Virus record (IMG/VR): IMGVR_UViG_3300046791_000283
Span: 1-64,000 of that record
Strand: one strand, 5' to 3'
DNA: 64,000 nucleotides
Origin: a virus
Lineage: Duplodnaviria; Heunggongvirae; Uroviricota; Caudoviricetes
The translations under genes and the position numbers were made by a program. Shown piece by piece: positions 400 to 61,076 of this stretch; positions within the stretch are counted from its first letter, which is position 1, and each line of letters opens with the position of its first letter. The notes under the pieces are model-generated. The model saw nothing but the letters and a program-made list of their open reading frames with translations, did no database searches and was not told the DNA's origin.

Positions 400-1251
400 T
401 TATACAACAGTGTTTACTACTGAATGAGCAACAAATCCAGCGGCCTTATTTCCATTCACGTCACGGATCGCGTTAGCGGCCGGTACGGTATAAGTAACCA
501 GAGGCACATCGGTCACCACGACTGCAGCACTAAGTGTGAGTGTAACTGTTTTTAAAGTCGCGTTTATCGCTACAGAGTTTATTGTCGGTGTACTCGCAAT
601 ACCTGAGACTGCAAACGCAGTAGTCGCTGGTATACGGAGTGCATCAAGATTATGTAGATCCGTATAGGTTAGTACGAGTAGCGTATCCGCTGCATCGGTT
701 ACCGTGATTGTTGATAACACAGGGGGCGCACCATCGGCCTGAGAACGATCGAAGCGATTGTAACTCAATTCAGCCTTCGGATTATTTCTAATCACAGTGA
801 TATTACCGGCACTGATTCTTAATTTCTTAAATGGAATTGGAACCGGATCTCCAGGTAGGAAGGTGCGCGCAATTATTGTAGCCACATCGATCAATGGACT
901 CTCTGGTTCGAACTCAACAATCGTTGGGTTCTCTGTAACAACAAATCCAGCCCCATTGAGAGCCGCTAGGAGTCTGAGGTTTCCAGTACCAGTGGCACCA
1001 AACTCAGCCTTAACCCAGATTTTACTTGAACTTGGAACCTTATATACTGAATACACTCCAGCATAAAAACCAGATTCAATGTATACGGTTTGCCATTTCT
1101 TAAGCCCATGGCCGGTCGCGGTTATTTCAATATAATCGGCCTCCGCTGCAGCCGCAACCACAGTAAACGCTATGGTACGTTGAGCCGCTCCAATGACCTC
1201 AACTCCATTGTTGGCCATGAGCGTGTCAAGAGAAAGTTTTTCACCTATCAT
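400..1251 (-). CDS. virion-associated protein with T/V/A-rich Ig-like C-terminal region (hypothetical)
   Basis: 283-aa ORF, start overlaps the stop of the upstream gene (translationally coupled); beta-rich low-complexity C-terminus. Confidence 0.5.
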   Translation of the reverse strand: MIGEKLSLDTLMANNGVEVIGAAQRTIAFTVVAAAAEADYIEITATGHGLKKWQTVYIESGFYAGVYSVYKVPSSSKIWVKAEFGATGTGNLRLLAALNGAGFVVTENPTIVEFEPESPLIDVATIIARTFLPGDPVPIPFKKLRISAGNITVIRNNPKAELSYNRFDRSQADGAPPVLSTITVTDAADTLLVLTYTDLHNLDALRIPATTAFAVSGIASTPTINSVAINATLKTVTLTLSAAVVVTDVPLVTYTVPAANAIRDVNGNKAAGFVAHSVVNTVV

Positions 1252-34365: not shown

Positions 34366-35658
34366 ATGAGCTACGATAATTTCAAATGCTGGTTTCGGAT
34401 CCGGGAGAAAAAATCCCCGGATATCGAAGTCGTTGTTACAACCGCTATTAAAAAGAAAACCGGTTCCTCTAAAGTAGAGGGCATGCGTACCCTTGGTATG
34501 GCAATCCCCGAGGGAGCCCGTTGGGGAGGAAAGAAAGATTGGGTAATCGGTATCGATGATGAGAGCCTCCAGATTAACCAGGCGCTCAGCACGATCAAAA
34601 AAGGTCTGCACACCCGTTACCTTAAAATGAAGAATGACAAACAGATGGAGCCCATACCGGTTGATGTCATTCGGGCTTACTTCGATGAAACCTCCACTGT
34701 GTCCAAAGGACTCATCGAACTCATCGATGAGTACCTGTTAGCAAAACGATTGGCTATTAACACAGCCAAGGTCTATCAGTTGAATATTCGAAGTCTATTG
34801 ACTCGATTTATTCCAACTGAATTCCAAACACCCGATGTAAGCATTGAACGCATCGATACTCCGTTCCTATACCGGCTGGAGATATTCATCCGCAAGTCAC
34901 CGAAAAGTAAAAGTGGAAAGCCGTTCGCTGAGAGTACGATTCGTGAATACATTGGTAAGGTAAAGGCGATTGTAGAGTACGCGATCAGCGTGGGATATGT
35001 ACGTGAACGATTAACCGAACAGTATCAGGCGAAGAAGTTTGGTAAGATTGAAAACCAATCGTTTGAACGTCTTGTGAGTCCGGATGATTTATTAAAGATT
35101 GAAACAATCGAGGTCCCCGCACCAGGCAATCCTATGAAACAGAAATACCATAGGTACGTTGTCAAGAAATGGCGTATGCGATTACTCTTTCTATTTCAAC
35201 GCTGGACCGGACTCTCTTATGCCGATCTGGTTGCCATCGGTAGTAATATCCGTAATCACATTCAAACCGATATGTCCGGGAAGAAAAGCATTGTGTATCA
35301 AAGGCAGAAGAGTGGAGTCATGGCGATCATCCCATTGTTTCCACAGACCGAAGCCCTCCTGGAGAAACTCGAATACAATATCTATCCGATGGAAACCTAT
35401 GAGGCTACGTACGGGACGGTCAGAAGTATGTTCAAGTGGTATGGATTCCCCTACTGGAAAGAAGTTGGTACGCACACCGGCCGACACGTTTTCGGAATTG
35501 AAATGCTTACGATGGGATTTAGTATGGAGGCTGTATCCCGGATGATGGGTCACCAGAATATTGAGGAGACTCAGAAGGTTTATGCGAGAATCGATATGAC
35601 TAAAATCAATGTTGATTTGGATCGGATTAATCTGCGAATCAAAATCACAGGTAGTTAA
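34366..35658 (+). CDS. int: tyrosine recombinase / integrase (Bacteroidota-type, long N-terminal arm domain)
   Basis: GTHTGRHVF (R..HxxR) and HQNIEETQKVYARI (catalytic Tyr). Confidence 0.85.
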   Translation: MSYDNFKCWFRIREKKSPDIEVVVTTAIKKKTGSSKVEGMRTLGMAIPEGARWGGKKDWVIGIDDESLQINQALSTIKKGLHTRYLKMKNDKQMEPIPVDVIRAYFDETSTVSKGLIELIDEYLLAKRLAINTAKVYQLNIRSLLTRFIPTEFQTPDVSIERIDTPFLYRLEIFIRKSPKSKSGKPFAESTIREYIGKVKAIVEYAISVGYVRERLTEQYQAKKFGKIENQSFERLVSPDDLLKIETIEVPAPGNPMKQKYHRYVVKKWRMRLLFLFQRWTGLSYADLVAIGSNIRNHIQTDMSGKKSIVYQRQKSGVMAIIPLFPQTEALLEKLEYNIYPMETYEATYGTVRSMFKWYGFPYWKEVGTHTGRHVFGIEMLTMGFSMEAVSRMMGHQNIEETQKVYARIDMTKINVDLDRINLRIKITGS

Positions 35659-48020: not shown

Positions 48021-48737
48021 TTACGCTAACGATTTCAACATCTCTATCAATTCTGGCTGCGGGTGACAATCTGCTTTGTCCGGACGATATGAGGTGTGCG
48101 TAAAGATACCCGGTTCACCGGACAATGCGCGCTTATTCACATCCCACATTTCCCAATCGTAATCCTTTGGAATATTGTAGGCATTACACCAGAGCTCAAG
48201 GAGTTGCGCAGTACTCCGGATTTGAGCATCAGAATATTTATGATAATACAGGGCTGGCTTACCAACCAAGTGGTGTTGATTAAAAAATGTAGAATCCGGA
48301 TACTTCTTGTATCCCTCTGGATACCTAGTTACCTCATCCTCTGGTACCAAGGTGCCAACATAGGAATAGAACTTACCATCCACGAGGGCCAATGGGCCCC
48401 ACGCATCAATTTCAATTCCTATACAGTGCTTATTCAATTCAGTGTTACGGCTGGGTAGGCCAGCATCTTCAAAAACGTTGGCCTTAATACCAAGGTGGTG
48501 ACCCCAGTACTTACTTTGAAACAGTTGAAATATAGTGCCCTCGGTTCCAATGATAACCGGTGTAGCCACGCGTTCCGCATTACTTAACCAGTGGCGGAAA
48601 TCCCCTGTGGCTCCTCGGCCGCTAGCCGTATGATGAAGACATATCTGCTTCTTAGTGGTCTCCTCCTTGTAGTATTGCTCATCTGGAAACACCAGTGATT
48701 TATCAATTGTGTTAAGATCTAAGGCTGGGTATTTCAT
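48021..48737 (-). CDS. endolysin, N-acetylmuramoyl-L-alanine amidase (Amidase_2/PGRP)
   Basis: CLHHTAS and THTSYRPDKADCHP are zinc-ligand motifs of T7-lysozyme-like amidases. Confidence 0.7.
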   Translation of the reverse strand: MKYPALDLNTIDKSLVFPDEQYYKEETTKKQICLHHTASGRGATGDFRHWLSNAERVATPVIIGTEGTIFQLFQSKYWGHHLGIKANVFEDAGLPSRNTELNKHCIGIEIDAWGPLALVDGKFYSYVGTLVPEDEVTRYPEGYKKYPDSTFFNQHHLVGKPALYYHKYSDAQIRSTAQLLELWCNAYNIPKDYDWEMWDVNKRALSGEPGIFTHTSYRPDKADCHPQPELIEMLKSLA

Positions 48738-48755: not shown

Positions 48756-51700
48756 TTAAAGATACACTATTGCTTCAAGTTCGCGTATACTCCGGAATAT
48801 CTGATTTCTAGTCTGGATGGCCTCGGCTTCCTGCTCTCCTTCAACCTGATCACTATAATCCTGCATCAAAGCCTCAATTTCACCTATGGAATCGTTTATT
48901 TCGTATAAACGATCGGCCTCCTCCTGTGAATATTCTATCCGCTCCTCCTCAAGGGCTTTAATTTTCTGCTGATTTTCCTTCTTAATTTCATAGTAGAATT
49001 GCACCTGGCGAGAGGCCTCAAAGTACAATTCCTTGGTGAAGATATCGCCAAAGCCATACGCACCCTCCTTACCAGTCACATATTTAACCGCCCGACCAAA
49101 CGTCCCCTCCAGGAAGTGATCTATTTTCTTTGGGCTCCATCCCAGCTTTTCACCCATGAATACCGCTACCGTACTTGTGTACTTGTTGTACCGTAGCTCT
49201 GGAGGCAAGGAAAGATCTTTCTGCGACTCTATTGGACGTACGGTCGGATAGGTCTTTTGACCCGTGGCCACCTCCACCGATGGCTTAACCGCCTGTGGTA
49301 GGTAGGAGAATAGCATCTGATATCCTGCGAACGGATTGGCCTGGGTTGGTAAGAATGATAAACTCGCTTGCCCATACTCACTCCATTTGTAATCGGTTTG
49401 ACCAGCATTCTCAATCAACATCATATTCAACATACTACTTAACCAAGCAAGTTGATCTGGAATGCGAATTTGAACTAGTCTCTTCTTACTGTATGGGTTC
49501 GGAAGAAACAAATACTTACTCATGGTCTCCGGAGGGATGGCTTTGATCAATTGCTTTTGCTCATCATCATCATCCATACCCAATAGATATAATACCGATC
49601 CAACCGATGCCGCTGTAATCGAAAACACTGCAACAGCAAACCGAATCCTACCCTCCTTGGTCTGTAGTGCATTACGATTCTGAATCAACACCTGTAACGA
49701 TGAATTGAAGTATGGTAAACTCCTAACATACGATTGTCCAATTTTACCACCGAGCCTGCCCGTATGATGGAATGGTGCCGATACCCTACCGGCTTCTTCA
49801 AGCGCTACAGCCTGGTGCTTCCCAGCCTTACGCGCACGAATGTATTCGGTTCCCCTGGTGAATATTTCCGAAGCATTTCCCGGAGTGCTCATAACCTTTG
49901 CAATAAAATCAAAGAACCCAGCCAGGCGGTCGGTCCACTGTTTCTTATTACCCAGAATAACATCGTTAAGATTTTGTGTCGATGCAACATCGGCACTCAA
50001 GAACGTCTGCGATGTACCGGCCAAGAACATATACTCCTTCAGGTAAGCCGCTTCAACCGATCCCTTACTCAGGATGGCCTTACCCATTTCAATCGATGAG
50101 GTTACGAAGGGAAACATTCCATTGCGTGTGTTAACCGATGCGATAGCCTGGTCAAGGAAAATGTTGTTAGCAAAGAATTGCCAGAATAGTCCGGTCGTAC
50201 CGGCACGGAATACCTGGGCCATGGAGACCCCGACCTTTTCAATTAAGTGGTGATTGTGATACGAATAGTTCTCATCCAGCACGGCTTTCATTTGAGCGTT
50301 AGCCAAAATGGGCACGCGCTTGCCATCCTTACGAGCCATAATGATATTCGGATCCTTCTCCTGTGGATAACGATTCCTTGGATCCTCCGACACCTCCAAT
50401 GGTACAACCTGGAATACTGGTGCCAGGTCTTTCTCATTCGCCTCCACCATGCCCAATATCTTATTATACACCATCTGCTTCATCCCTTTGTTAAGCATTT
50501 CGGTGTGTGCAACCATGGAACTCATCAACGGACTGATAATGGCCTTCTCACTACCACGTCTGGACATAAACTGGCTAGCCTTTGTTTTACCTGATTGACG
50601 AATCTTTGGTATATCGTTCTCCCCAACGATTTCATCGTAGAAAGCACGCTTCAATGGAGTGTATCCCTTCTTAGCTGATAGTCGACTGTACGCTGTATCA
50701 TCGATCATTTGAACCAATGGGTTCACAGCAAAGTCAAGATTCTCCCGAGTAAGCTTATCGTACATCTTCACCTCTTCTTCAAATAAACGATTACCCTCAG
50801 TGAATGCCTCCTCGGATTCCTTCTCACTCACACCTTCCTTTTTAAGCAATGCCTCCATATCCGCGATATCCTTCTTTAATTGTTCGGACTGTATCCGCGC
50901 AAATGTTTCGGCTTGCTGCTGCGAGATACTCATGGACTTCATTATGTCGGCCACATAGGTTGGAGCCTGTACTTTAGCCAGTTCGGCTTCAAGTCGGTGC
51001 TGCTCATCGTAATCGTATTTGATTCGTCTGCCATACAGGTAAGCATCGAACTCATCGAGCATACCACGTTTCTCCAATCCGTTTACTATGGTGTAAAAAT
51101 TGAAATCGTGCTTCTTGAAGAACTCACCCGTAGGGCTCATGGAATAAAACTTCTGAGCTTTCGATGAAATGTTCTTCTGGGCCATCTGCAAATAATTATT
51201 CGATAGCCTTATAAATATCGATACGTCTTCCTGTGTGAAGTGAGTCCCATGGATCTTCGCAAGTTTCTCATACGGATAAAGAGAATCGAACAATGTTTTT
51301 GTGATCTGATCGGACTTACTTAAGAAGGGTGCGGTTTCCCCGAGATCCTCTGCGCTCTCATTCACAATCCGTGCACTCATCTTAGCCAATGGATCTAATG
51401 ATTGATAGGTCTGAATGACCTTATCCACATCCTTCATAAACTCCTCTACCTGCGGAACATAATACTTTCCTCCGGGTTCAAGGAATTCCTTAACCAATTC
51501 TGGGAAATCCTTCCGGATCTCTGCCGGTTGTTCCAGGTACTTCTGAACCAATGTCGCATACCCCTCAACCATTCTTCGATATAGATCGTGACCCGGCTGA
51601 GCTTTTGGATAATACTTCAGATACAAATTAGTTAGCTGCTGACGGAACGGATCCGCAGCCTGAGTATTCTTTATAAAATCACTCACCACACTATTCTGCT

Positions 51701-54700
51701 TATCCAACGCATGTGTAAGCTCGTGCATTACCACGCTGAGTGAATTCAACCCTTTAACGCGCACGTTAGTTGATCCACGATAGAATACACCGAGGTTTCC
51801 ACGACCGGTTTTATCCTGACCCAGTGTGGCATCCGGATTATACTTCTTAGCCAATTCTATAGCCTTCCGATAGAGTTTAATCGGGATCGGTTGTGGTTCG
51901 ATGGCTCTGCCTTCGAATTCACCGATAGGTGCCGCACCTTTTGAAGCATCTGAAGTCTGAGCAAAGAAATCAGGTTCCTTGATCTCTTCCTCGGGTACCG
52001 CTGCCGGTGGGGTCTCATCCGATGGAATCTTTTCTTCCGGGGTCCTACGGACCGCTCCAACTGGAGTGGTATCTGTAGCTGTCTCAGTTTTCTTACCAAT
52101 CGGTGCTACCGGAGTGAATAGTCCGAATTGTTGTTTATCACCTTCTTTGGCTCTTTGAATATCAGTAGTGAGTTTCACCAACTGATTGTTAAGATTTTTT
52201 AATTGCCCTTCGATCTCCTGGAGACGCGATGGCTGCGGGGGATCCTTCTTATTGAACCTCTCCTTCTCAAGTGCTTGGATTTCCTTCTTAACCTGGTCGT
52301 ACTCATCTACCATCTGGGACTCATTAAATCCACGGGTCGTACGGTTCTCAAGGTTTAAAGGCTGATTTGGATCAGCCAAGAAAGAAACGTTATTAACAAC
52401 ACTGTCAAGGCGATCAATAAAATCCGCCCGGGTCGTAAGTTTCTTACCTGTTCCATTGACTAAATATTCATGTAGTTCGTTTTCCTGTGAATCGGTCAGC
52501 TGGGGAAAACGCTTACGCGCTTCTCCAATAAATTCTCCGACCTGCATTACTCGGCCCTGACCCTCTGTGGTTTCAGACTTCTGCACCGCCTTAATCATAT
52601 CCCGGGTCTGTCCACCCTTCTTCAAATAACTAAATAGGACCTCACGTTTAGTTGTGCTGAGCTTCTTTTTCACTTCCGATTCACTCATACCCTCCGATCT
52701 ACGCTTGGCTATAAGCTTAGCGCGATCCAAAACAGTTTCTTGGGTTGCAGCCTTATTCGATCGTTCGGTTGCAAATGCGATCGCATCGGCCTCACTCTTA
52801 CTCGAAGCGTCTACAGCATCAATGGTTTTGAAGTTTTCAAACCCCTGTGCACGCATCTTCTCCATGGCCGCCTCAGGTATTTCCCCAGCCTCCAATTTCT
52901 TCTGTAGTTCACGGAAGGCCTCGGTACGTGAGTGACCGGCTAACACATAGGTTTTATCGTTCTTAGGATCCGTCCAAGTGCGTACGGGATCGAACTCGGT
53001 TACATCGAATTTACCCTCCATAACCGCGTCAACGATCTTCTGCACGCTTTCCTTCGAATAGTCCTCCTCACGGGCTTGGAATCGCTCCAAATCAACGTTG
53101 ATATCCTCTACGGGTTTAGCCTCAACCCTTACCCTTGCTTTCGGTGCGACCTTAGCTTGCTCTGTTTTACTTTCTCCGGGAGGGCCTTGAGATTCTGTTG
53201 ATACTCCTTCGCCCACCGGTGCGCTAGTTCCGGCTTCTTCAGAAACAGGAACCTCTGCTGGGATTTGCTCTTGAATGGCATCTTCTACTGGTTTAGTTTC
53301 CGGTGTTACCGCTGCCGGTGGTGCCTGTATCTCCTCCGCCTTCGGTAAAACCTCGTCTTCAATAAATTTCTTAATTTCTTCCTTTGGCCTGGTGTCACCA
53401 TACTTCGTAGCAACATCGGCCACACTGTCTACAAAGTTTTCATACGATTGCTTATCCTCAGGCACGCTGGTTTTCTTCAATCGGTTAAGAAAATTAGCTT
53501 TTGATAAAGCCGTTGCTCCCTGGCCAGCTGCCGATATCCCGGCCCCACCAATAGCTCCAGCGATACCCTCATCGATCGCTTGTAACCAATCGATATTCTG
53601 AACAGCCTCAGTGGTACCGAGTCCGGTCATTTTACCAACAGCGGTTTGCTGCAGCGCTGACTGTGTGGATTCAGTTAACAATTCAACCCCACCGGCTTCA
53701 CTTGACTTTCTTATCCAGCTGAGTGCGCGATCACGTAGATCCCTACGGAATCCCTTTATACCTATAGAACCAGCCACCTTACCCGCACCCACACTATCCA
53801 GTGCCCCCTGAATGATACCAAAGTTCCGTGCGATTACCGGTTCATCCATATCCTTCCTGATAACCTCCTCGGGAGTCATTTTATTTTGATTCGCGATCTC
53901 CGTTACACCATCGAGATAGTTATTACCAACCTCCTGGAGATACGATGTGGTTCCCCTACTATAAATCGATGGAATGATTTGAGCCGCTCCCTGTCCAACG
54001 GATGAGAATACAAAATCAATTACATCCAGTGGCTTCTTAATTTGCGAAATGCTTTGAATTAGATTCTTATCATTAGCAATTAACATGGGGACTCCGTTCA
54101 TGCCCGGTACCATGTGAATAGGAGCCTTTCTCCATTCCTGGGCCCAGTCGAATACGGCTACCCTGGCATTATCAACATGCTCGTTAACCGTCTCTTTAGC
54201 ACCTGGTATCTGCGAAACAGCCTTCTTAAACTGACTGACCACACCGGGTTTATACCATGGTCTATTTTCGTCCTCAGGCTTGATTTTAAGATCAGCTAAG
54301 ATATTTGATATGGTTGCACCGGTGGAGGCGGGCAATTCGAAGCCAAGTGTTTTCGTAACGGCCTTACCAAAGGAACCGAATATACGATCCGTGATATCCT
54401 TATTATCCTGAATAGCTTTCGTCCGCATAATCTGATCATACGATTGCCCAGTCAATAATTTGGATAGATCATCCGTATCAACATCTATATCCATTGGAAT
54501 TAATACCCCTTGATCAACAAGTTTTGCTTTATCGGGATTATTTTGCTTGAAAACTTCATTCCTGATTTCTTGAATCTTCTTATCATCCAATCCAAGTGTT
54601 TCAAATAATTTTTCCTGACGAGCACTATTGAATTCAAGATATTGATCACGCTGATCTTTAGCTAGAGTTTGAAGAGATTGTATCTGTTTATACTTCTTAT

Positions 54701-55313
54701 TCCCAGCTGCCAACGCATTATTATACTCACCGACTAATCCTTGATATTGTTTTACTTTTTCGTAATCAGTGAAAGTATCGGGGTTGTTTTCATTTAATGA
54801 TTTTTCTAAATCTTTCAACGATTGATGTTCCAGATTGTAATCGTGTAACATCTTATTGTATTGAACAACATTCAAATTATGTCGATCAACCTGATTCTGA
54901 TCTTTAGTATTCACTTTAGCCTCATCAAGAGTCTTTTTATATGAAGAAATTTCTTTCTCACGACCCTTAATATTTTCTAACGACTCATTGTATTTAGAAA
55001 GTGATTCATTGTACTGTTTAAGCTTACTTGGATCGGTAAAATTTGATGGATCTATACCACCTAAGGTACCCTCAATAGATCTAACTTTAGTTACATCTTG
55101 TTCGTAACCTTTAATAAGCTCGTCTAATTGAGTAAGTGATTTTTTATATTCAAGTGCCGGGGACGTGGGCTCTCCAATAGTCGAGGAATCTACTCCATCG
55201 ACTTTTTTTTTTAATGGTTCTTCACCCTCTGGTACGAAATCAATAGTCTTACCAGTCTTAGGTTTATCGTCCTCTATGGGTGTGAAGTCAATATTTTTTA
55301 ATTTCTTTCCCAT
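48756..55313 (-). CDS. 2185-aa polyvalent protein with ParB-like and zincin HExxH domains
   Basis: ParB/Srx motif VLAGHSRTEAFREL at about 52930-52950; HExxH VVMHELTHALD at about 51710-51740; K/E-rich coiled-coil N-terminus; TM helix near the C-terminus. Confidence 0.8.
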   Translation of the reverse strand: MGKKLKNIDFTPIEDDKPKTGKTIDFVPEGEEPLKKKVDGVDSSTIGEPTSPALEYKKSLTQLDELIKGYEQDVTKVRSIEGTLGGIDPSNFTDPSKLKQYNESLSKYNESLENIKGREKEISSYKKTLDEAKVNTKDQNQVDRHNLNVVQYNKMLHDYNLEHQSLKDLEKSLNENNPDTFTDYEKVKQYQGLVGEYNNALAAGNKKYKQIQSLQTLAKDQRDQYLEFNSARQEKLFETLGLDDKKIQEIRNEVFKQNNPDKAKLVDQGVLIPMDIDVDTDDLSKLLTGQSYDQIMRTKAIQDNKDITDRIFGSFGKAVTKTLGFELPASTGATISNILADLKIKPEDENRPWYKPGVVSQFKKAVSQIPGAKETVNEHVDNARVAVFDWAQEWRKAPIHMVPGMNGVPMLIANDKNLIQSISQIKKPLDVIDFVFSSVGQGAAQIIPSIYSRGTTSYLQEVGNNYLDGVTEIANQNKMTPEEVIRKDMDEPVIARNFGIIQGALDSVGAGKVAGSIGIKGFRRDLRDRALSWIRKSSEAGGVELLTESTQSALQQTAVGKMTGLGTTEAVQNIDWLQAIDEGIAGAIGGAGISAAGQGATALSKANFLNRLKKTSVPEDKQSYENFVDSVADVATKYGDTRPKEEIKKFIEDEVLPKAEEIQAPPAAVTPETKPVEDAIQEQIPAEVPVSEEAGTSAPVGEGVSTESQGPPGESKTEQAKVAPKARVRVEAKPVEDINVDLERFQAREEDYSKESVQKIVDAVMEGKFDVTEFDPVRTWTDPKNDKTYVLAGHSRTEAFRELQKKLEAGEIPEAAMEKMRAQGFENFKTIDAVDASSKSEADAIAFATERSNKAATQETVLDRAKLIAKRRSEGMSESEVKKKLSTTKREVLFSYLKKGGQTRDMIKAVQKSETTEGQGRVMQVGEFIGEARKRFPQLTDSQENELHEYLVNGTGKKLTTRADFIDRLDSVVNNVSFLADPNQPLNLENRTTRGFNESQMVDEYDQVKKEIQALEKERFNKKDPPQPSRLQEIEGQLKNLNNQLVKLTTDIQRAKEGDKQQFGLFTPVAPIGKKTETATDTTPVGAVRRTPEEKIPSDETPPAAVPEEEIKEPDFFAQTSDASKGAAPIGEFEGRAIEPQPIPIKLYRKAIELAKKYNPDATLGQDKTGRGNLGVFYRGSTNVRVKGLNSLSVVMHELTHALDKQNSVVSDFIKNTQAADPFRQQLTNLYLKYYPKAQPGHDLYRRMVEGYATLVQKYLEQPAEIRKDFPELVKEFLEPGGKYYVPQVEEFMKDVDKVIQTYQSLDPLAKMSARIVNESAEDLGETAPFLSKSDQITKTLFDSLYPYEKLAKIHGTHFTQEDVSIFIRLSNNYLQMAQKNISSKAQKFYSMSPTGEFFKKHDFNFYTIVNGLEKRGMLDEFDAYLYGRRIKYDYDEQHRLEAELAKVQAPTYVADIMKSMSISQQQAETFARIQSEQLKKDIADMEALLKKEGVSEKESEEAFTEGNRLFEEEVKMYDKLTRENLDFAVNPLVQMIDDTAYSRLSAKKGYTPLKRAFYDEIVGENDIPKIRQSGKTKASQFMSRRGSEKAIISPLMSSMVAHTEMLNKGMKQMVYNKILGMVEANEKDLAPVFQVVPLEVSEDPRNRYPQEKDPNIIMARKDGKRVPILANAQMKAVLDENYSYHNHHLIEKVGVSMAQVFRAGTTGLFWQFFANNIFLDQAIASVNTRNGMFPFVTSSIEMGKAILSKGSVEAAYLKEYMFLAGTSQTFLSADVASTQNLNDVILGNKKQWTDRLAGFFDFIAKVMSTPGNASEIFTRGTEYIRARKAGKHQAVALEEAGRVSAPFHHTGRLGGKIGQSYVRSLPYFNSSLQVLIQNRNALQTKEGRIRFAVAVFSITAASVGSVLYLLGMDDDDEQKQLIKAIPPETMSKYLFLPNPYSKKRLVQIRIPDQLAWLSSMLNMMLIENAGQTDYKWSEYGQASLSFLPTQANPFAGYQMLFSYLPQAVKPSVEVATGQKTYPTVRPIESQKDLSLPPELRYNKYTSTVAVFMGEKLGWSPKKIDHFLEGTFGRAVKYVTGKEGAYGFGDIFTKELYFEASRQVQFYYEIKKENQQKIKALEEERIEYSQEEADRLYEINDSIGEIEALMQDYSDQVEGEQEAEAIQTRNQIFRSIRELEAIVYL

Positions 55314-57133
55314 TAATCCACTTGTTCAAATCCTTGCTTGAGAGCTTCATCGAGTTGATCCGCTGGAATGTGACCAATCTTACCGTCCTTATTACGAACT
55401 TTTATTTTGCCATCTGGAGAAGCAGCGGATTTCTTTTTAGTTGATAAACCCTTGTATACATCGGCAAGTTCACCACGTTCAGCGTTAATGGTACCATAGG
55501 TTCCATCCTTATACTTCACATCCCAACCTTTGAACGTACCACCACCCATACCCAACACACCACTACCACTACCAAATACACCCGGTTCAACGTTTGGCTT
55601 AGCATCCTCTATTTCCTTGCCGTTATGAATCTTACCAACAAATTCTTCAGCCCCCTCACCCTTCAGCCATTTATTGTCAACGGTTTCATTCTCCATTGCT
55701 TTCAACTGCTCATTCACTTGAGCCATTCCCTCACGACCCTTATACATTTCCGAAGGATTTACTCCCTTCCAATCGGCCAGTTGATCGAATCCAATGTTAA
55801 ACTTACCTTCTGACTTAGCCTGTTCAAATAATGCGTTCAGCTGAGCCCCAGCACCCTCATCGGATAGGTTGATATCAATTGGCTTGGCTTGACCTCTGGT
55901 ACCAAACTTAACTTTAAACACAACCCGATCGCTTGCATTGTTAGGAACATTCATTCCCATAATACTCGTGGAACCTGGTGCGTTGGACCCGGGAACAATG
56001 TCCGCGTCTAATACATCGCCACCCCCGAGTTTTACGTTTTTCTTTAAATATCCAAGAGCCGCGCGGGCCTGTGGATTGGCAGAGGTCATACGGTTGCCAT
56101 CCGGATCATAGAACGCATTCACAACATTGTGTATGTTTTCCCAACGTCTGGTTGCCTGAGGAACCTTGTCTGGGCTTATACCACCACGTGCTGCATTCTG
56201 GTAATCCATGAACCATTGCGATGGTGTGCGATAGATCGGGCGTAATTGCTTTTGGAATCCACCCTGTGGTGAAACAAAGGATTCAATGGCCTGTTTAACA
56301 TCCATGCCATTTTGATCCGCATACTTTTGAATGAACCGCTTAGCGTTTTCATTCGATGTAAAGGAGTTAACAAAATCAGGAGTAGCATTGATAATAGGAT
56401 TACCATTCGCATCCTCACGTACACCAGAAGCGGTGGTTTCGTCTGGAGTATACAGAGCTCCCTTCACCTTCACCTCAACATCATCGGCTTCCAGGCCCAT
56501 GTTGGTATTCTTCTGCTTCTTCCAATTGAAAACATTCTCTTTCAGAGAACCCATGAAATCTTTTGTGTACTTACCGATATCAAATCCCATAGGATCTTCG
56601 GTATACACGTTTTCAATTTTATTTACATCGATGTTATCAATTGGTTTTCCGTTTCCGTACGGATCCATGTATTGATCAAAAATCTTTGGATAGTAGTACT
56701 CAGCTTTCAAGTATGGATCCTTCTCAATAAGTGACATCGTTTTGTCAATCTTATCTTTGATGTAAACTCCTCTACGCGCAACATCATTCACTTTTTCCCA
56801 ACCGGCTTGATTTGCCATTAAGAAATTTGGACTCGCTGGATCCCCACCCTTGCCAAGATATTCCATTCCCAACTTACGATGTTGATTAGCGGCCGCCAGT
56901 ACTTGTTCATTGAAAGGTTGAAAGGTTTTCTCCGGGCTGACAGAAATGATCTCCATCATCTTTTTATCCCGTTCTTGTTTCGCTTTAGCTTCTTCAGCCG
57001 ACTTAACCGCTTGGGCTTTGGCTTGAGAAGCACGAATGTTAAAATATCCACGGAGCGGATTGCCATGAAAGACCTGAGCGGCACCAGTGCCCTCAGCACC
57101 TCTAGCGACTACACTTTCTCCTGTTATTGCCAT
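55313..57133 (-). CDS. virion structural protein (hypothetical)
   Basis: 606 aa inside the structural block. Confidence 0.6.
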   Translation of the reverse strand: MAITGESVVARGAEGTGAAQVFHGNPLRGYFNIRASQAKAQAVKSAEEAKAKQERDKKMMEIISVSPEKTFQPFNEQVLAAANQHRKLGMEYLGKGGDPASPNFLMANQAGWEKVNDVARRGVYIKDKIDKTMSLIEKDPYLKAEYYYPKIFDQYMDPYGNGKPIDNIDVNKIENVYTEDPMGFDIGKYTKDFMGSLKENVFNWKKQKNTNMGLEADDVEVKVKGALYTPDETTASGVREDANGNPIINATPDFVNSFTSNENAKRFIQKYADQNGMDVKQAIESFVSPQGGFQKQLRPIYRTPSQWFMDYQNAARGGISPDKVPQATRRWENIHNVVNAFYDPDGNRMTSANPQARAALGYLKKNVKLGGGDVLDADIVPGSNAPGSTSIMGMNVPNNASDRVVFKVKFGTRGQAKPIDINLSDEGAGAQLNALFEQAKSEGKFNIGFDQLADWKGVNPSEMYKGREGMAQVNEQLKAMENETVDNKWLKGEGAEEFVGKIHNGKEIEDAKPNVEPGVFGSGSGVLGMGGGTFKGWDVKYKDGTYGTINAERGELADVYKGLSTKKKSAASPDGKIKVRNKDGKIGHIPADQLDEALKQGFEQVD

Positions 57134-57136
57134 AGA

Positions 57137-57895
57137 TTAAGCGTTAAAGCCACTGAACCATTCAGCACTGTTGTCAATAGTTGTAACAGGATTTGGTTTA
57201 ACGCCTCTCCTGCGATTCAAAAAATTAAGTGCTCCTGTATTCTTTCCGCCAACATCTAGTGCATAGAGATTCATTAGATTTTCAGTAAGCCCGTTAAAGG
57301 CATTGAATTTATTTTGCAACGATGATCCGATGAGTGCTGATTTTGCCTGATTATAATTTTCAAATGAAGCCCTCTCGTGACCAGCCTGAACTCCAAGGGT
57401 TTGATTCAACCGTCCCTTTGCATTAGCCCGATATCCTTCATTGGCCACTTCTAAATCCTTAAGAACTTCCTTCTCCCGTGCATCAGCATCGGCTACAGAT
57501 TGCTGAATGGTTCCAGCGTTTTTAGTTCCTCGCATTGTTCTAGCGATCGTATTAGCTGAAGATGTACGGAGTTTATCAACCGTTCTACCATAACCTGGTG
57601 CAACGCTTGCGTTGGCATCTATTCTGGCACCGGCCACGGCCTCCTGAACAGATGGAGGAATATAATTACTTGGCTTAATCTTCCCTGCTAACTTTTTCTG
57701 CTTATCACCCTGATATTTTTGATATGCAGAGGTGGCCAGTGTGGTTAAAATTGGGATCAATGGAGCGATCATCGCTATATCGCGCTTCTTAATAAAAAGA
57801 AGACTGATTGCACTCCAAATGAACAGGGAACTCAGGATGTATATTTCCATGGTGTTAAAGTTAAACAGAAAATTCCTCAGTCTTAAAGACCACAT
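57137..57895 (-). CDS. virion-associated protein with N-terminal TM segment (hypothetical)
   Basis: 252 aa. Confidence 0.5.
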   Translation of the reverse strand: MWSLRLRNFLFNFNTMEIYILSSLFIWSAISLLFIKKRDIAMIAPLIPILTTLATSAYQKYQGDKQKKLAGKIKPSNYIPPSVQEAVAGARIDANASVAPGYGRTVDKLRTSSANTIARTMRGTKNAGTIQQSVADADAREKEVLKDLEVANEGYRANAKGRLNQTLGVQAGHERASFENYNQAKSALIGSSLQNKFNAFNGLTENLMNLYALDVGGKNTGALNFLNRRRGVKPNPVTTIDNSAEWFSGFNA

Positions 57896-60800
57896 TCACA
57901 TGGCTCATCTGAGCCTTATCCAGTCGATCTGTTTCGACCTCAATTTCAGCATAATTTGACACAATATCATCACCGGAACGTAATGCTAATTGCCCCTCCA
58001 TCACCTCTGTATTCGTATCCTTTAAGATAGCAGCGGTCCAGATGCCCTCATCTAGCTCAAATTCATAGGCTGGTATAATGGATTCCTGGCCCTCAGGGGT
58101 GGTGATTCTAACCGGAATAAATTCACTCGTTGGATCTGTACACAGTGCCCCTTTGATATGAAAATTTAAATACCTCTTATTCTTACCCAATAAGGCATTA
58201 GAAACAAACTTCCATTTTCTGGTGTACTGAACTCCAAAGAAATTATTGTGGATTGGATTAACATTCTGTAACCACAACTTACCATCTTTAAATGCTACCA
58301 GGTCCGTGTTAAGACTGCAATACATTTCTGGGATGAAACTGTACCGTGTTTGCCATTCCTTAGATTCAATATTAAATGCCCAGGTTTCACCGGCCACAAT
58401 GATTGCATCGAATTGGTCACGGACATCTGGAAATGTAATGAGTAGTTCACCATTCAAATAATCGAATGCCGTAATCACCTTTATTTCATTTCGGTAAGGA
58501 AAATAATCCCTTGACTTCTTGAAGAAATCATAGGTCTTGCCATAATTACTAATTGGATATAACCCGGAAGCAGAATATTGAATCACAGCCCCCTGTAAAC
58601 CATCCCACCAAAAAGCGAAACCAAATACACGGATCATGGATTCGGGATTAATCGTACCATAGTTCAAAGCCATCTCACGATCATCACCAACCACATTATC
58701 TGTTTGAACTAAAATGAAATCATTCTTCTGCTGACGCATAAAACTCTCACCAACATAAAGTGAAGAGGTAAAGCGCTCATGCACTGCTACCAACACTCCA
58801 CTGACCTTAATAGCACCACGTACAGGTCCTCTTTCTATTGCTAGCGTATACTGATTAGTTGCCAAAAACGAATTAAGCCCATTGATAAATGAATTTTGAA
58901 CATAAGGATTTGAAAATCCAAAAGTACTGTAGATATCAACCTCACGTTCTTTAAAAATTGTATGAGGAATACCAAGATCGGAGGCAATCTTATTATAATC
59001 AAATGTAGACACTGGTACAGTTGCCCTGAATAATCCTGTGTCGGAACCAGATGTAGCCTCTCCTATGGTAACTGATTGCGTCCCACTTGTGGCATAAATT
59101 GGACTCGGTGTCTCCACTGGAAATTCAAACCATCGGCCATTGATCACATTTCGCCAATTTCCTGAAATAGGAGCGAATTCTCCTGATTCAAATAAATCAG
59201 AGAAAGTAACATCACCATACATCGTTCCCCTCAACCCACCTCCACGCTGCGTCACTACATACGTATCTCCTTCAAGGTTTCCGTTAAGCACAGTAAACTC
59301 ATCGTTTTGTATTGGGTGGATAACACCGGTCTCATTGAATACAACATTTTCTGATTCAGTTGGTTTGAATACCTCAATTCCTATCCCAGAAGCCGCTGCA
59401 TATCCAAAAAAATCATTTCCAGAACCATCGTGGACAAGAAACTCGGGGGCCGCTTCAATCACTAGGAAATCACCGATTACATCGATAACCTTATAAAACT
59501 TAGTTGCTATCGAGCTTATTAAAAACCTGACAAAGAAACCCGGTGTAACCGCAGAAGGAATATTAATTGGTGTTTGAATGTAAAGAAATCTAGTCTCCTC
59601 AAGATGATCGTACCCACCTAAATTCAAGAACACCTTCCCTCTCCAGTTTAAATAATAACTATGCGTAGCGTTATCGTTTCCATCTGGTGTTGATAATTCT
59701 CTAACATAAAAATGCACTGCTGCAAATGTTTGAAAATGCACTGACTGAAATTTATTCTTTGTCAATACAATATGGTACTTACTAAATCCTGGTGGTGGAG
59801 ATCCGGTCAATGCCCATTGAATAAATTTTCTATTATCACGTCTGAATTTATACTCACGTGTATCAGCTGGATCAATGTAATAAGGGACTGTTATTGTTTT
59901 TGATCTTTTTACAAAAGTCCTTCCTCCATAATCAGCTTCAAAAACAACACCAACGCTATAAACCCCACCTTCTTTTAAATATTTAATATTTGGATAAGTA
60001 TCATCCGTGTTCTCTGATCCCAATGTTATCTCAAGATCAAAGGTTGATTCATCGATATTAAAACCGGTTTTATTCAATGGAGTAAACACCCTGTTTTCTA
60101 CTATTTCTAAAGCATTAGTAATCTTTGGGATGTAGTCATACACACGAAGTTGATCGTCTTTAGAAACAGCTGTGGATTTCCCGTTATTAGTAAAATCAAC
60201 CGTATAGCTATTCCCTCCAATGGGATTGTCTACTTCTTCAAAAATGAAGTAATCTCCAGTATTTCCTTTTCTGTATGCAAAGTTGATTCGCTTAACAAGT
60301 CCAGATAATTCTAACGGTAGATTGGTTGTCACCTTTATAGTGTTGTACTCTTGGCCTGGTACTATGGTTACCTCAAATCCTGAATTAGTTATGAGATCAA
60401 AATTTTCATAAGGCCTGATCCAAGCGAGCTTACTCAGAGAACTAAATGTAGAGTACCTATCATCGTGGTAAACAAATTGACACGCAAATTGCCAGGTGTT
60501 ATCAAAAATTCTATTGATAGTTAAGGTGTTATCAAAATGCAAGATAATCGTTGGTGCAGAAGGTGGTTTGGTAGCCAGGGAAAGTTGATATTGAGAATAC
60601 GGGGCCACATAACCTCCTGCTCTTGCTTTTGAAAGGCTGATTGATCTGGGTGAATTAAAAGCATCGTTTGAAATCCAAAGATCATCGATGCATCCGCCCT
60701 GAGTAATCAAATGATTTTCATCAAATCCAAGGCTGCTACCATACAATAGGGTTGTAAACACACCGGTATCAACAAACCACTCAAATACCCTGTGGTCAAG

Positions 60801-61076
60801 ATTACTATTCCATACGCAGAATATTATTGAGTTATCCTTAGTATTAACAAATCGACCAATTGTCTTATTTGTTCCAGCTGGAAGTGAATTGTCTTTTAAA
60901 ATATTTCCTGGAGTTGATTCTAGAAGGCCGCGGGCACCATTACTTGTCTTATACCTACAGTTTACAGCATCGAGCAGATCTCCGGGAAGAAACATGCGAT
61001 TCCCATCTCTTCCCACAGCGCCAGGTGAGAAGTCTTTATTAATTCTATTTGGGACATATTTTTCAATCTGCTGCAT
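57861..61076 (-). CDS. large tail / receptor-binding protein (hypothetical), 1071 aa
   Basis: Long beta-rich protein typical of tail fibre or baseplate proteins; position in the structural module. Confidence 0.55.
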   Translation of the reverse strand: MQQIEKYVPNRINKDFSPGAVGRDGNRMFLPGDLLDAVNCRYKTSNGARGLLESTPGNILKDNSLPAGTNKTIGRFVNTKDNSIIFCVWNSNLDHRVFEWFVDTGVFTTLLYGSSLGFDENHLITQGGCIDDLWISNDAFNSPRSISLSKARAGGYVAPYSQYQLSLATKPPSAPTIILHFDNTLTINRIFDNTWQFACQFVYHDDRYSTFSSLSKLAWIRPYENFDLITNSGFEVTIVPGQEYNTIKVTTNLPLELSGLVKRINFAYRKGNTGDYFIFEEVDNPIGGNSYTVDFTNNGKSTAVSKDDQLRVYDYIPKITNALEIVENRVFTPLNKTGFNIDESTFDLEITLGSENTDDTYPNIKYLKEGGVYSVGVVFEADYGGRTFVKRSKTITVPYYIDPADTREYKFRRDNRKFIQWALTGSPPPGFSKYHIVLTKNKFQSVHFQTFAAVHFYVRELSTPDGNDNATHSYYLNWRGKVFLNLGGYDHLEETRFLYIQTPINIPSAVTPGFFVRFLISSIATKFYKVIDVIGDFLVIEAAPEFLVHDGSGNDFFGYAAASGIGIEVFKPTESENVVFNETGVIHPIQNDEFTVLNGNLEGDTYVVTQRGGGLRGTMYGDVTFSDLFESGEFAPISGNWRNVINGRWFEFPVETPSPIYATSGTQSVTIGEATSGSDTGLFRATVPVSTFDYNKIASDLGIPHTIFKEREVDIYSTFGFSNPYVQNSFINGLNSFLATNQYTLAIERGPVRGAIKVSGVLVAVHERFTSSLYVGESFMRQQKNDFILVQTDNVVGDDREMALNYGTINPESMIRVFGFAFWWDGLQGAVIQYSASGLYPISNYGKTYDFFKKSRDYFPYRNEIKVITAFDYLNGELLITFPDVRDQFDAIIVAGETWAFNIESKEWQTRYSFIPEMYCSLNTDLVAFKDGKLWLQNVNPIHNNFFGVQYTRKWKFVSNALLGKNKRYLNFHIKGALCTDPTSEFIPVRITTPEGQESIIPAYEFELDEGIWTAAILKDTNTEVMEGQLALRSGDDIVSNYAEIEVETDRLDKAQMSHVNVVFKTEEFSV

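Follow-up and report, generated by a model that had tools for sequence, protein, structure and literature searches.

A 2185-residue polyvalent protein with ParB-like and zincin domains encoded by the last virion-operon gene of a temperate phage

The minus strand of the analysed window (the whole stretch of viral DNA, 64,000 nucleotides) harbors an uninterrupted ORF of 2185 codons, the largest in the window (the runner-up encodes 1071 aa). Its product, referred to below as the giant, is identical to protein P0001 on a metagenomic contig of ~79 kb. The ORF list and the PHROG and Pfam matches of the neighbors confirm the location proposed in an earlier note based on the sequence alone, i.e., between the virion genes and the lysis cassette (Table 1). 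The gene order runs from a crAss-muzzle-like protein via a two-TM-helix protein of 252 aa and a 606-aa protein to the giant and the lysis genes, with three small membrane proteins also situated downstream of the giant. The giant is the last gene of the virion operon, the upstream proteins of which match PHROG virion structural families. The 1071-aa muzzle-like protein yields a sub-threshold match to crAss_MUZ_C (20.4 bits), its orthologues have crAss_MUZ_C or crAss_MUZ matches, and it resembles proteins of Cellulophaga phages phi38:1 and phi40:1 that bear a structural annotation. The 606-aa protein has no family or phage-database match; its position is conserved in the relatives. Its stop codon overlaps the ATG of the giant (TAATG), so the giant is translationally coupled to it. 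The same order (a muzzle- or nozzle-sized protein, small proteins, a mid-size protein, and a giant closing the virion module) was documented in seven other contigs. The phage is temperate, as evidenced by the presence of an integrase, and it carries HTH regulators; the copy from Chryseolinea resides in a 653-kb contig and adjoins an integrase gene. On the contig record, the 252-aa protein is called as 211 aa.

Table 1. Features of the giant and of the adjacent genes (window coordinates)
Feature	Residues	Coordinates	Strand	Basis or remark
Whole gene	1-2185	48756..55313	(-)	2185-aa polyvalent protein, candidate for the ejection slot; 0 Cys
Long helices, coiled-coil-like	52-300	54414..55160	(-)	AlphaFold N-half model, pLDDT about 70-80
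Lineage-specific helical N-module	300-640	53394..54416	(-)	Gly-rich, mildly hydrophobic segments; low model confidence
Pro/Glu-rich disordered linker 1	641-734	53112..53393	(-)	14% Pro, 21% Asp+Glu
ParB/Srx-family N-domain	735-860	52734..53111	(-)	gp43 link, 10-member alignment, Noc match
Helical extension accompanying the ParB domain	861-1062	52128..52733	(-)	Conserved with the ParB core
Pro-rich linker 2	1063-1130	51924..52127	(-)	Disordered in the model
MtfA/lethal-factor-like zincin	1131-1305	51399..51923	(-)	HELTHALD aa 1197-1204; third ligand E1250
Conserved, mostly helical middle of the C-terminal block	1306-1700	50214..51398	(-)	Outside any Pfam family
LPD38-containing region	1701-2095	49029..50213	(-)	Pfam LPD38, E=1.9e-13
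Conserved single hydrophobic TM-like helix	1889-1912	49578..49649	(-)	Kyte-Doolittle 19-aa score 1.99
Acidic C-terminal helical bundle	2096-2185	48759..49028	(-)	
606-aa protein		55313..57133	(-)	Candidate gp15/gp51-like ejection protein; 0 Cys
252-aa protein, two N-terminal TM helices		57137..57895	(-)	Candidate gp14/gp52-like ejection protein; 0 Cys
crAss-muzzle-like tail protein, 1071 aa		57861..61076	(-)	phrog_14478, virion structural protein
Amidase_2 endolysin, start of the lysis cassette		48021..48737	(-)	Pfam Amidase_2, E=1.6e-12; PHROG amidase/endolysin

The giant comprises, in this order, a helical N-region, a lineage-specific N-module, a ParB/Srx-family domain, and a C-terminal block of ~1070 aa, the latter consisting of a MtfA/lethal-factor-like HExxH zincin, a helical middle, and LPD38 with one conserved hydrophobic helix. 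The modules are separated by Pro/Glu-rich linkers; in linker 1, the AlphaFold pLDDT falls below 50 at aa 659-743. The first ~50 aa are disordered, and the helices following them are common only to the closest relatives. The N-module (aa 300-640) has no Pfam or PHROG match, and its core, about aa 416-600, is also encountered in otherwise unrelated giants: according to BLAST, P0008-P0010 have only this module in common with the giant. The coiled-coil stretches described earlier agree with the long AlphaFold helices at aa 52-300, 998-1062, and about 2100-2185.

Both motifs pointed out in the earlier note were found where it had placed them: the ParB-like VLAGHSRTEAFREL at aa 790-803 (window 52905-52946) and VVMHELTHALD at aa 1194-1204 (window 51702-51734), the only HExxH of the giant. 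None of the ParB-type Pfam models reaches its threshold on the giant's own sequence; the ParB-like domain was corroborated by an alignment with a phage protein and by a profile match. Thus, aa 713-1017 align (E=1e-21) with gp43 of Salisaeta icosahedral phage 1 (SSIP-1), a 2319-aa protein annotated as structural, where the stretch aligned contains Pfam ParB_N above the cutoff (27.7 vs. 26.3 bits). The homology, 27% identity over 314 columns, spans the ParB module and its helical extension; at the same time, gp43 possesses a methyltransferase, lacks the LPD38 block, and originates from a tailless icosahedral phage. A 10-sequence profile of the core matches Noc (7NFU), a member of the ParB family; the match extends over the entire N-domain and keeps the two signature boxes in register, although its E-value of 0.0011 is rated as weak. 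The similarity to Noc is limited to the N-domain, with no match to the ParB DNA-binding or dimerisation domains beyond it. The two boxes, RFQAR (aa 744-748) and AGHSR (aa 792-796), are invariant in the alignment of 10 diverse members. The extension, ending in a helical hairpin (aa 998-1062, pLDDT about 88), is conserved alongside the ParB core in both gp43 and nine family members. The nuclease activity of this module is a putative one.

The zincin assignment made earlier likewise holds, by residue conservation, core topology, and recurrent weak matches, even though none of the curated zincin models reaches its threshold on the giant's own sequence. Residues H1197, E1198, H1201, D1204, and E1250 are each conserved in at least 90% of 147 family representatives. 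In the AlphaFold model of this region (pLDDT 75-90), a helix, three strands, the HExxH helix, and the Glu helix recapitulate the zincin core topology. Weak Peptidase_M90 matches recur in 8 of 26 members, the PDB profile search is topped by MtfA structures (weak, E about 0.2), and Foldseek in local mode ranks anthrax lethal factor best (probability 0.57). From these features, we infer a peptidase activity of the domain.

The polyvalent nature of the protein, asserted in the earlier note, is borne out by Pfam LPD38 (large polyvalent-protein-associated domain 38), scoring 51 bits vs. a cutoff of 27; the match itself covers aa 1977-2080 (window 49074-49385). Conserved in the LPD38-containing region is also PFHH (aa 1847-1850). 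The TM helix thought to be C-terminal does exist as one strongly hydrophobic helix, but it is located 273 aa before the C-terminus and not at the very end. It is preceded by Arg/Lys and followed by DDDDE, and scores at least 1.5 in 92% of 147 members; in 97%, no other segment of the block is as hydrophobic. In the AlphaFold model, this helix is packed inside a helical domain, hence its insertion into a membrane would need refolding. In the middle of the block, H1603, E1605, D1654, and R1666 are conserved; this region gives no Pfam match in the stand-alone members, and hundreds of proteins match it in one stretch with the remaining parts of the block.

A profile of aa 1117-2185 retrieved 1301 proteins at E<=1e-3 and 365 clusters at E<=1e-30, and nearly all of the best 150 matches are end-to-end in one stretch. 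By these sequence matches, the C-terminal block is a single conserved unit. Fold searches with it returned no significant PDB analogue. The block is almost always C-terminal (the median C-terminal extension is 5 aa), while the N-terminal extensions ahead of it range from 13 to 3156 aa; stand-alone forms of ~1065 aa exist as well. In 18 sampled members, the payloads preceding the block are very diverse and include those of the lysozyme or cell-wall type (SLT, glucosaminidase, and GH19) along with DNA methylases, SNF2/Sbno helicases, Acb1, 2H/LigT, PARP/ART, Zeta toxin, and InPase. Related phages also have giants without the C-terminal block in the same slot (P0008-P0010 and phi38:1 gp101), so this block is not the sole possible chassis; the N-module may serve as the element docking to the virion of this lineage.

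The closest relatives (P0002-P0006, ~55% identity) harbor an extra DarB-type block of about 1200 aa, a Sbno-type helicase plus N6-adenine methylase, at the site of linker 2, with BLAST boundaries at aa 1108/1117. It displays Pfam ResIII, AAA_34, Helicase_C, and Helicase_C_4, and the consensus of the relatives bearing it contains the NPPYG motif. Their methylase-helicase core is as in DarB-like proteins, whereas the giant is devoid of methylase and helicase, having the ParB-family module and the lineage-specific N-module instead. In view of the block boundaries and an NJ tree, the giant appears to have lost the methylase-helicase payload present in its nearest relatives.

Another hallmark is the lack of cysteine: the 252-, 606-, and 2185-aa proteins contain 0 Cys in 3043 residues, where the background is 1.0% (taking only the giant, P is about 3e-10). 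Cysteine is absent from 126 of 147 family proteins, and the methylase-helicase-bearing relatives, at about 3300 aa, have 0-1 Cys. The Cys count is also 0 in T7 gp15 and gp16 and in N4 gp50, gp51, and gp52.

Among the known polyvalent proteins, gp69 of Burkholderia phage JC1 (with Bcep22 gp75) and gp01 of Vibrio phage VvAW1 are DarB-like virion proteins of very large size that carry LPD38 near the C-terminus as does the giant. JC1 gp69 is encoded by the last virion gene before lysis, and mass spectrometry identified it in virions (PMC9144972). It also has a lytic transglycosylase and LPD3, neither of which is found by Pfam in the giant. Vibrio phage VvAW1 gp01 aligns with aa 1712-2080 of the giant. 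In phage P1 DdrB, a head-associated protein from an anti-restriction context, a ParB/Srx-family domain of the DdrB type is situated upstream of an HExxH metallopeptidase as well (PMC5512222); the giant exceeds DdrB more than twofold in length and has the LPD38 block at its end. The 2811-aa gp47 of Stx phage phi24B combines LPD5, LPD1, LPD38, and a metallopeptidase; it resembles the giant in the LPD38 and metallopeptidase but differs in the accessory domains. It is abundant in virions by proteomics and absent from the cryo-EM map, and the authors proposed it to be an ejection protein. The phage search with the giant gave no P1 match and no close match to phi24B gp47.

The layout of the locus has parallels in ejection systems. 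T7 gp14/15/16 show the same operon order and sizes (PMC8954989). T7 gp16, predicted to have hydrophobic helices towards its C-terminus (PMC8954989), bears an enzymatic add-on on the largest protein, comparable to the cell-wall hydrolases of several C-terminal block family members; sequence and fold searches revealed no similarity of the giant to gp16, nor anything like gp15/gp16. N4 gp50 is the third and largest product of a small/medium/giant ejection operon (gp52/51/50) and, like the giant, consists of modules strung on low-complexity linkers ("beads on a string"). In the C-terminal domain (CTD) of gp50, which recalls the C-terminal block, an HExxH subdomain precedes a large helical domain of no known fold; the family HMM and hhalign found nothing in common with this CTD beyond a 12-residue HExxH helix. 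The giant lacks the RNA polymerase module of gp50, and N4 has its membrane helices at the N-terminus, as opposed to a location within the C-terminal block in the giant. In PhicrAss001, muzzle gp44 is followed by the virion cargo proteins gp45-gp47: a TM-helix protein, a ~600-aa protein, and a ~250-kDa giant (PMC10172136). Still, crassvirus giants are RNA-polymerase-associated, whereas the giant described here is a polyvalent LPD38 protein and its muzzle-like neighbor shows below-threshold similarity.

Overall, the 2185-aa giant is a phage-type polyvalent protein, a class already known, and this earlier interpretation is supported in all its elements, in some of them via indirect evidence. Probably, it is packaged into the virion, filling the slot of the "largest ejection protein" in a temperate Bacteroidota phage of the podovirus type (crAss-muzzle-like). 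By analogy, the parallel to the slots of T7, N4, and PhicrAss001 and the Cys-free trio would support packaging and ejection; the injection envisaged earlier likewise accords with the gene position, with virion proteomics of LPD38 proteins from other phages, and with the Cys-free signature common to T7 and N4 ejection proteins. The giant would be made late, as the final product of the virion operon coupled in translation to the two smaller Cys-free proteins, and the three of them would be loaded into the capsid. At infection, the trio might be extruded, at least partly unfolded, via the portal, tail, and muzzle before or with the DNA. The C-terminal block would act as the delivery chassis, with its hydrophobic helix engaging the inner membrane. 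The zinc peptidase, with its conserved catalytic residues, could then cut the giant at the Pro/Glu-rich linkers or attack an envelope or host target. The N-terminal passenger modules would enter the cytoplasm. There, as expected from its family, the ParB/Srx domain may bind nucleotide and/or nick or coat DNA, either protecting the incoming phage DNA or damaging that of the host.

It is unlikely that the giant is essentially a structural ejectosome or conduit, its sole role being that of a DNA-entry channel and its HExxH and ParB-like parts being non-catalytic scaffolds or regulatory surfaces. Passenger-free stand-alone C-terminal block proteins do exist, implying that the block by itself must be functional; PTXU04_00025, annotated with LPD38 only, is critical for efficient infection; the HExxH-bearing CTD of N4 was shown to regulate the polymerase and has no reported protease activity; and both the operon layout and the Cys-free signature fit channel-forming ejection proteins. 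However, the metal ligands and catalytic Glu of the zincin (H1197, E1198, H1201, and E1250), along with D1204, show at least 90% conservation over 147 divergent members and the ParB boxes do not vary among 10 diverse ones, and such patterns are usually maintained by catalysis or ligand binding; elsewhere in the family, the passengers (Acb1, methylases, ARTs) are plainly enzymatic. Quite improbable is an unpackaged late protein of the cytoplasm, either a ParB-type partition or prophage-maintenance factor or an assembly-stage morphogenetic protease. The temperate lifestyle (the integrase, and the Chryseolinea copy beside an integrase gene) would suit it, partition systems are the best-known setting of ParB domains, and zincins can act in morphogenesis, P1 DdrB being thought to be processed before packaging. 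Against it, no ParA partner occurs among the genes examined around the giant, the Noc match does not extend to the other ParB domains, the giant's gene ends the virion operon in every relative, LPD38 proteins were detected in virions of other phages, and the total lack of Cys would be left unexplained.

In Crassvirales, the giant encoded next to the muzzle gene usually is a virion RNA polymerase, and one could also envisage a crAss-type enzyme of this kind, diverged beyond recognition, given the muzzle-like upstream protein, a length within the range of PhicrAss001 gp47 (262.5 kDa; PMC10172136), and one DxDxD (DIDVD, aa 275) conserved in close relatives. This is very hard to sustain: judging from the composition, about 0.5 DxDxD would be expected by chance, the motif is outside any confidently folded domain, no polymerase family matches anywhere in the giant, and the LPD38 block and the ParB module account for more than half of it; furthermore, a temperate phage with HTH regulators need not bring its own polymerase. 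Just as remote is a structural protein of the tape-measure type devoid of enzymatic domains, named in the earlier note as the refuting case. The giant does combine great length with a largely helical make-up and Gly-rich hydrophobic segments (aa 430-600), but the scan of the virion genes detected no tail-tube, sheath, or tape-measure-chaperone families, the tail module resembles that of muzzle-bearing podoviruses, the catalytic-type motifs are conserved, and the LPD38 membership is established.

The 2185-aa protein (the giant in what follows) is the product of a single unbroken ORF, the runner-up ORF of the window comprising 1071 aa. Hence, the earlier note correctly took it for the largest gene, and its further description, i.e., a polyvalent protein with ParB-like and zincin domains encoded between the virion genes and the lysis cassette, was supported as well. 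Virion proteins are encoded on one side of the gene and an Amidase_2 endolysin on the other; TAATG combines its start codon with the stop of the 606-aa ORF before it, and a protein identical to the giant is encoded by a metagenomic contig of ~79 kb. The product carries LPD38 (Pfam, 51 bits vs. the cutoff of 27), a ParB-family module, and an HExxH zincin. The ParB-type motif expected near 52940, the HExxH expected near 51720, and the anticipated TM helix were all located (see the table), the last as one strongly hydrophobic helix, and a motif scan found no other HExxH in the 2185 aa. Beyond LPD38, the Pfam, PHROGs, and PDB sequence scans of the whole giant and its segments returned only a sub-threshold M90 match.

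Polyvalent proteins in the sense of Iyer et al. (2017) combine several unrelated effector-type domains, including MPTase, ParB, and LPDs, and are encoded among the late or virion genes of phages with portal–terminase packaging; both features were found for the giant. It belongs to this known class as a new member, an assignment that none of the findings alters, and its domain combination consists of a lineage-specific helical N-module (aa 300–640), ParB, and a zincin–LPD38 block, without the DarB dyad described below. Few polyvalent proteins have been studied, although they are thought to act before all other phage proteins in the infected cell.

Coordinates of the features discussed (aa positions refer to the giant)
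Feature	Sequence	Coordinates	Strand	Residues or size
Giant	window	48756-55313	-	2185 aa
ParB-type motif, VLAGHSRTEAFREL	window	52905-52946	-	aa 790-803
HExxH motif, VVMHELTHALD	window	51702-51734	-	aa 1194-1204
Hydrophobic helix	window			aa 1889-1912
Linker 1	window			aa 641-734
Linker 2	window	51924-52127	-	aa ~1063-1130
252-aa gene	window	57137-57895	-	252 aa
252-, 606-, and 2185-aa proteins	window	48756-57895	-	3043 aa in total
Muzzle-like gene	window	57861-61076	-	1071 aa
GroEL-type chaperonin gene	window	14097-15713	+	
Tyrosine integrase gene	window	34366-35658	+	
Methyltransferase gene	window	32351-34363	+	670 aa
Methyltransferase gene	window	28606-30465	+	
SWM_repeat gene	window	400-1251	-	283 aa
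Relative P0008	locus L006	10001-17332		
Three-ORF giant	locus L007	10001-19443		1867, 572, 718 aa

The C-terminal ~1070 aa (aa 1117–2185, the C-block), comprising the zincin, a helical middle part, and LPD38, form one unit, as judged by a profile search against 1.84 billion representatives. The profile matched 1301 proteins at E ≤ 1e-3 (365 at E ≤ 1e-30), and nearly all of the best 150 matches spanned one stretch, positions ~7–1068 of the block. The block lies at the very end of the protein (median C-terminal extension 5 aa) and is preceded by N-terminal extensions of 13 to 3156 aa; stand-alone proteins of ~1065 aa also occur. Its Pfam coverage is limited to the LPD38 part, about 800 aa falling into no Pfam family, and no solved structure resembling the whole block was found. 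The passengers of the 18 members sampled include SLT, glucosaminidase, GH19, several DNA methylases, SNF2/Sbno helicases, Acb1, 2H/LigT, PARP/ART, Zeta toxin, InPase, DnaJ, and beta-clamp-like domains, and the remoter LPD38 proteins have PF18013, PF18760, PF18798, PF18814, PF18819, RadC, SLT, and Peptidase_M23 as partners. The hydrophobic helix, lying between basic residues and an acidic cluster, scores at least 1.5 in 92% of the members and in 97% exceeds every other segment of the block in hydrophobicity.

In the zincin part, H1197, E1198, H1201, D1204, and E1250 are each conserved in at least 90% of the 147 cluster representatives of the C-block, so that a downstream Glu ligand accompanies the HExxH helix family-wide. 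The HELTHALD of the giant fits the HExxH-xx-D pattern of a widespread phage-type clade of polyvalent metallopeptidases (Iyer et al.), D1204 being the D of the pattern. The AlphaFold model of aa 1117–2185 was good (mean pLDDT 79, pTM 0.65) and displayed the zincin core topology: a helix (H31–42), three strands (E48–50, E59–62, E67–70), the HExxH helix (H76–91), and the helix with E1250 (H128–145), with pLDDT of about 75–90. Peptidase_M90 (MtfA) was matched by 8 of 26 diverse members scanned singly, along with four single-member matches in other zinc-peptidase families. All zinc-peptidase matches on the giant itself are below the curated threshold, and with 18–19.8 bits vs. the Pfam gathering threshold of 26.2 it is not a member of M90 as such. 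The top two PDB matches of the profile were MtfA structures with the HExxH and the Glu aligned, weak at E of about 0.2, and the best local Foldseek match was anthrax lethal factor (probability 0.57). Conservation, the pattern, the model topology, and the M90, PDB, and Foldseek matches together make a convincing case for an MtfA/lethal-factor-like gluzincin, whose predicted activity would be proteolysis.

Neither ParB_N (PF02195) nor any other ParB model of Pfam matched the whole giant or its aa 700–1090, even at E ≤ 10. The stretch of aa 713–1017 is similar (tblastn E = 7e-14; pairwise E = 1e-21) to gp43 of Salisaeta icosahedral phage 1 (SSIP-1), a 2319-aa protein annotated as structural, whose aligned part scores 27.7 bits with Pfam ParB_N vs. 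the gathering score of 26.3. The same module was detected in nine further family members; in 10 diverse members the RFQxR box retains F, Q, and R, and the GHSR box G, H, and R, without exception, and the 10-sequence profile matched the ParB-family protein Noc (7NFU) along the full length of the N-domain (profile positions 3–136; E = 0.0011), with both boxes in register. The putative homology of the domain to the ParB/Srx superfamily is well supported by this relationship to a bona fide member combined with the Arg-containing boxes; judging from the family, nuclease or NTPase activity may be predicted. Its placement in the DdrB-type subfamily is not supported by the searches, which gave neither a Pfam match to DdrB-type ParB nor a P1 match by tblastn at E ≤ 1e-5. 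AlphaFold modeled aa 1–1116 poorly (mean pLDDT 54), with short strands and helices at aa 778–822 (pLDDT only 54–82), and Foldseek with the N-half model retrieved generic helical matches only. Profiles of five and six sequences of the ParB and zincin regions found no match in the PDB, whereas the deeper profiles did. A word-indexed search with the 302-aa ParB segment missed even the identical parent, so its negative results for short segments carry little weight.

Only ten relatives of the whole giant were retrieved from the large database. The relatives P0002–P0006 (~3300 aa) share ~55% identity (BLAST) with it in two blocks, aa ~173–1108 and aa ~1117–2185 of the giant, and hold ~1200 extra residues between them. 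The extra stretch harbors ResIII/AAA_34, Helicase_C/Helicase_C_4 (Pfam), and an NPPYG methyltransferase signature, by which it is recognized as the DarB-type dyad of an Sbno-type helicase and an N6-adenine methylase; such methylase–helicase pairing was described by Iyer et al. (PMC5512222). Pfam scans of the giant revealed no such dyad (N6-adenine methyltransferase plus SF2 SNF2/Sbno helicase). The insertion site coincides with the Pro-rich disordered linker 2, and another linker (linker 1) is Pro/Glu-rich. This is a clean, natural payload swap: one chassis is found either with a DarB-type methylase–helicase of 1200 aa or lacking it, the exchange being made at a disordered linker. In an NJ tree of the C-terminal blocks, constructed without support values, the giant falls within a clade whose other members, like the outgroups, are mostly dyad carriers; since it is nested among mostly dyad-bearing proteins, the tree suggests dyad loss in its lineage as the more parsimonious reading. 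Two large stand-alone methyltransferases encoded elsewhere by the window phage might compensate for the missing dyad. The ParB module, in turn, is missing from P0005 and P0006.

The relatives P0008–P0010 occupy the same genomic slot, and their common region with the giant spans only its aa ~416–707. They are cysteine-free giants of 1713–2443 aa without a Pfam domain, encoded by related phages of ~75 kb; their share with the giant is limited to the N-module (~150–290 aa), and each possesses one hydrophobic helix 200–360 aa before the C-terminus. Homology of the giant to these proteins outside the N-module, or to phi38:1 gp101, was ruled out by comparison. Because related phages put giants without the LPD38 block in this slot, the C-block is not the sole solution for it; the N-module may be the part docking the giants of this lineage to the virion. 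A ~90-aa segment at the extreme N-terminus (aa 1–95), which the giant lacks, is common to P0002, P0003, and P0009. The N-terminal BLAST matches of P0008/P0009 with P0002/P0003 display about 40% identity, and the segment is another small swappable module. In one related contig (locus L007), the giant is represented by three consecutive ORFs, the last with LPD38; either a true fission of the gene or frameshifts arising in assembly could account for this.

The window is a phage genome with the terminase and portal in the same minus-strand operon as the giant, and with GroEL, two large DNA methyltransferases, integrase, and DnaB helicase on the plus strand. The final genes of the virion operon encode, in this order, the 1071-aa, 252-aa, and 606-aa proteins and the giant; the endolysin and three small membrane proteins follow. 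The 1071-aa protein is matched by PHROG virion structural families and is similar to annotated structural proteins of the Cellulophaga podoviruses phi38:1 and phi40:1; its crAss_MUZ_C match is sub-threshold (20.4 bits vs. 27), and its orthologues in related contigs match crAss_MUZ_C or crAss_MUZ. The start of the 252-aa gene is ambiguous, since the mechanical ORF overlaps the muzzle-like gene and the contig record calls the gene as 211 aa, leaving one of its two hydrophobic segments upstream of the later start. The 606-aa neighbor has no homologue in deposited phages or protein family libraries, and megablast with 24 kb of the window found no nucleotide-level relative among deposited phages.

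In podovirus ejection operons, as a rule, a small protein with TM helices and a mid-size protein precede the largest one, which has a hydrophobic helix towards its C-terminus; size and synteny are the usual basis for matching ejection proteins (PMC8954989). The same succession is seen here behind the muzzle-like gene: the 252-aa protein with two TM helices, the 606-aa protein, and the giant with its conserved hydrophobic helix. Seven other contigs likewise have the giant as the final gene of the virion module, preceded by a protein of muzzle or nozzle size and by a few small to mid-size ones. The order is comparable to that of gp52/51/50 in N4 and of the muzzle gp44 and the cargo proteins gp45, gp46, and gp47 in PhicrAss001; the operon of the Cellulophaga phage phi38:1 has a comparable layout. 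The giant fills the ejection-protein (gp16-type) slot of a crAss-muzzle-type temperate phage, and, as an LPD38 protein occupying the cargo position after a crAss-type muzzle, it links the literature on polyvalent proteins to that on ejection proteins. There are precedents among other LPD38 proteins: mass spectrometry of virions revealed JC1 gp69; phi24B gp47, abundant in virions and absent from the cryo-EM map, was proposed by its authors to be an ejection protein; and efficient infection by PTXU04 depends critically on its LPD38-only protein. From the gene order, these precedents, and the lack of cysteine described next, the giant is probably packaged and delivered into the host.

The three proteins of the presumed ejection set contain no Cys in 3043 residues, as compared with an average of 1.0% in the other 32 ORFs examined; for the giant, about 22 Cys would be expected (P about 3e-10). 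Cysteine is likewise absent from 126 of the 147 C-block family proteins, T7 gp15 and gp16, N4 gp50, gp51, and gp52 (4294 residues), the three slot proteins of phi38:1, and P0008–P0010. The ~3300-aa relatives, with their methylase and helicase, have 0–1 Cys, against 13–14 in the stand-alone methylases of the window phage. This absence may well be imposed by the passage through the envelope; no paper on it came up in a full-text search in which three or more of four related terms had to occur. The end-to-end conserved zincin–LPD38 block and the lack of cysteine represent two simple candidate predictors of injected proteins.

Several other readings of the giant were weighed. The C-terminal domain of N4 gp50 also comprises an HExxH subdomain and, after it, a helical one of ~110 kDa without a structural homologue, and low-complexity linkers separate the gp50 modules. 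Common descent of this domain and the C-block was nevertheless rejected at the sequence level: the C-block family HMM and hhalign found nothing in common past the 12-residue HExxH helix, so the parallel is architectural only. More generally, the sequence and fold searches with the giant gave no match to T7 gp16, P22 gp16, or N4 gp50. A crAss-type virion RNA polymerase was dismissed, as the giant has neither DxDGD nor a polymerase family match, its single DIDVD (aa 275) being located outside any confidently folded domain. The reading as a tape measure was also considered and rejected. A bolder proposal, advanced tentatively and with somewhat more doubt than belief, is that the C-block, rather than being one more domain of unknown function, represents a conserved core on which the largest subunit of the ejectosome is built, a functional equivalent of gp16/gp50, in a very broad podovirus-type set including crAss-muzzle-type phages of Bacteroidota. 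Anti-defence effectors would then be N-terminal passengers on an essential DNA-delivery protein, and, if so, the near-total absence of cysteine could serve in general as a marker, readable from sequence alone, of proteins forced across the cell envelope by phages.

Among the plus-strand genes, the GroEL-type chaperonin matches phrog_5725 (E = 8.5e-167), the integrase is of the tyrosine type, and an HNH endonuclease domain is embedded in the 670-aa methyltransferase. A relative resides in a 653-kb Chryseolinea MAG contig (L005) with an adjoining integrase gene, which is consistent with a prophage. Directly after the portal gene, a protein with SWM_repeat (putative flagellar system-associated repeat, E = 2.8e-14) is encoded, a domain unusual for such a position.
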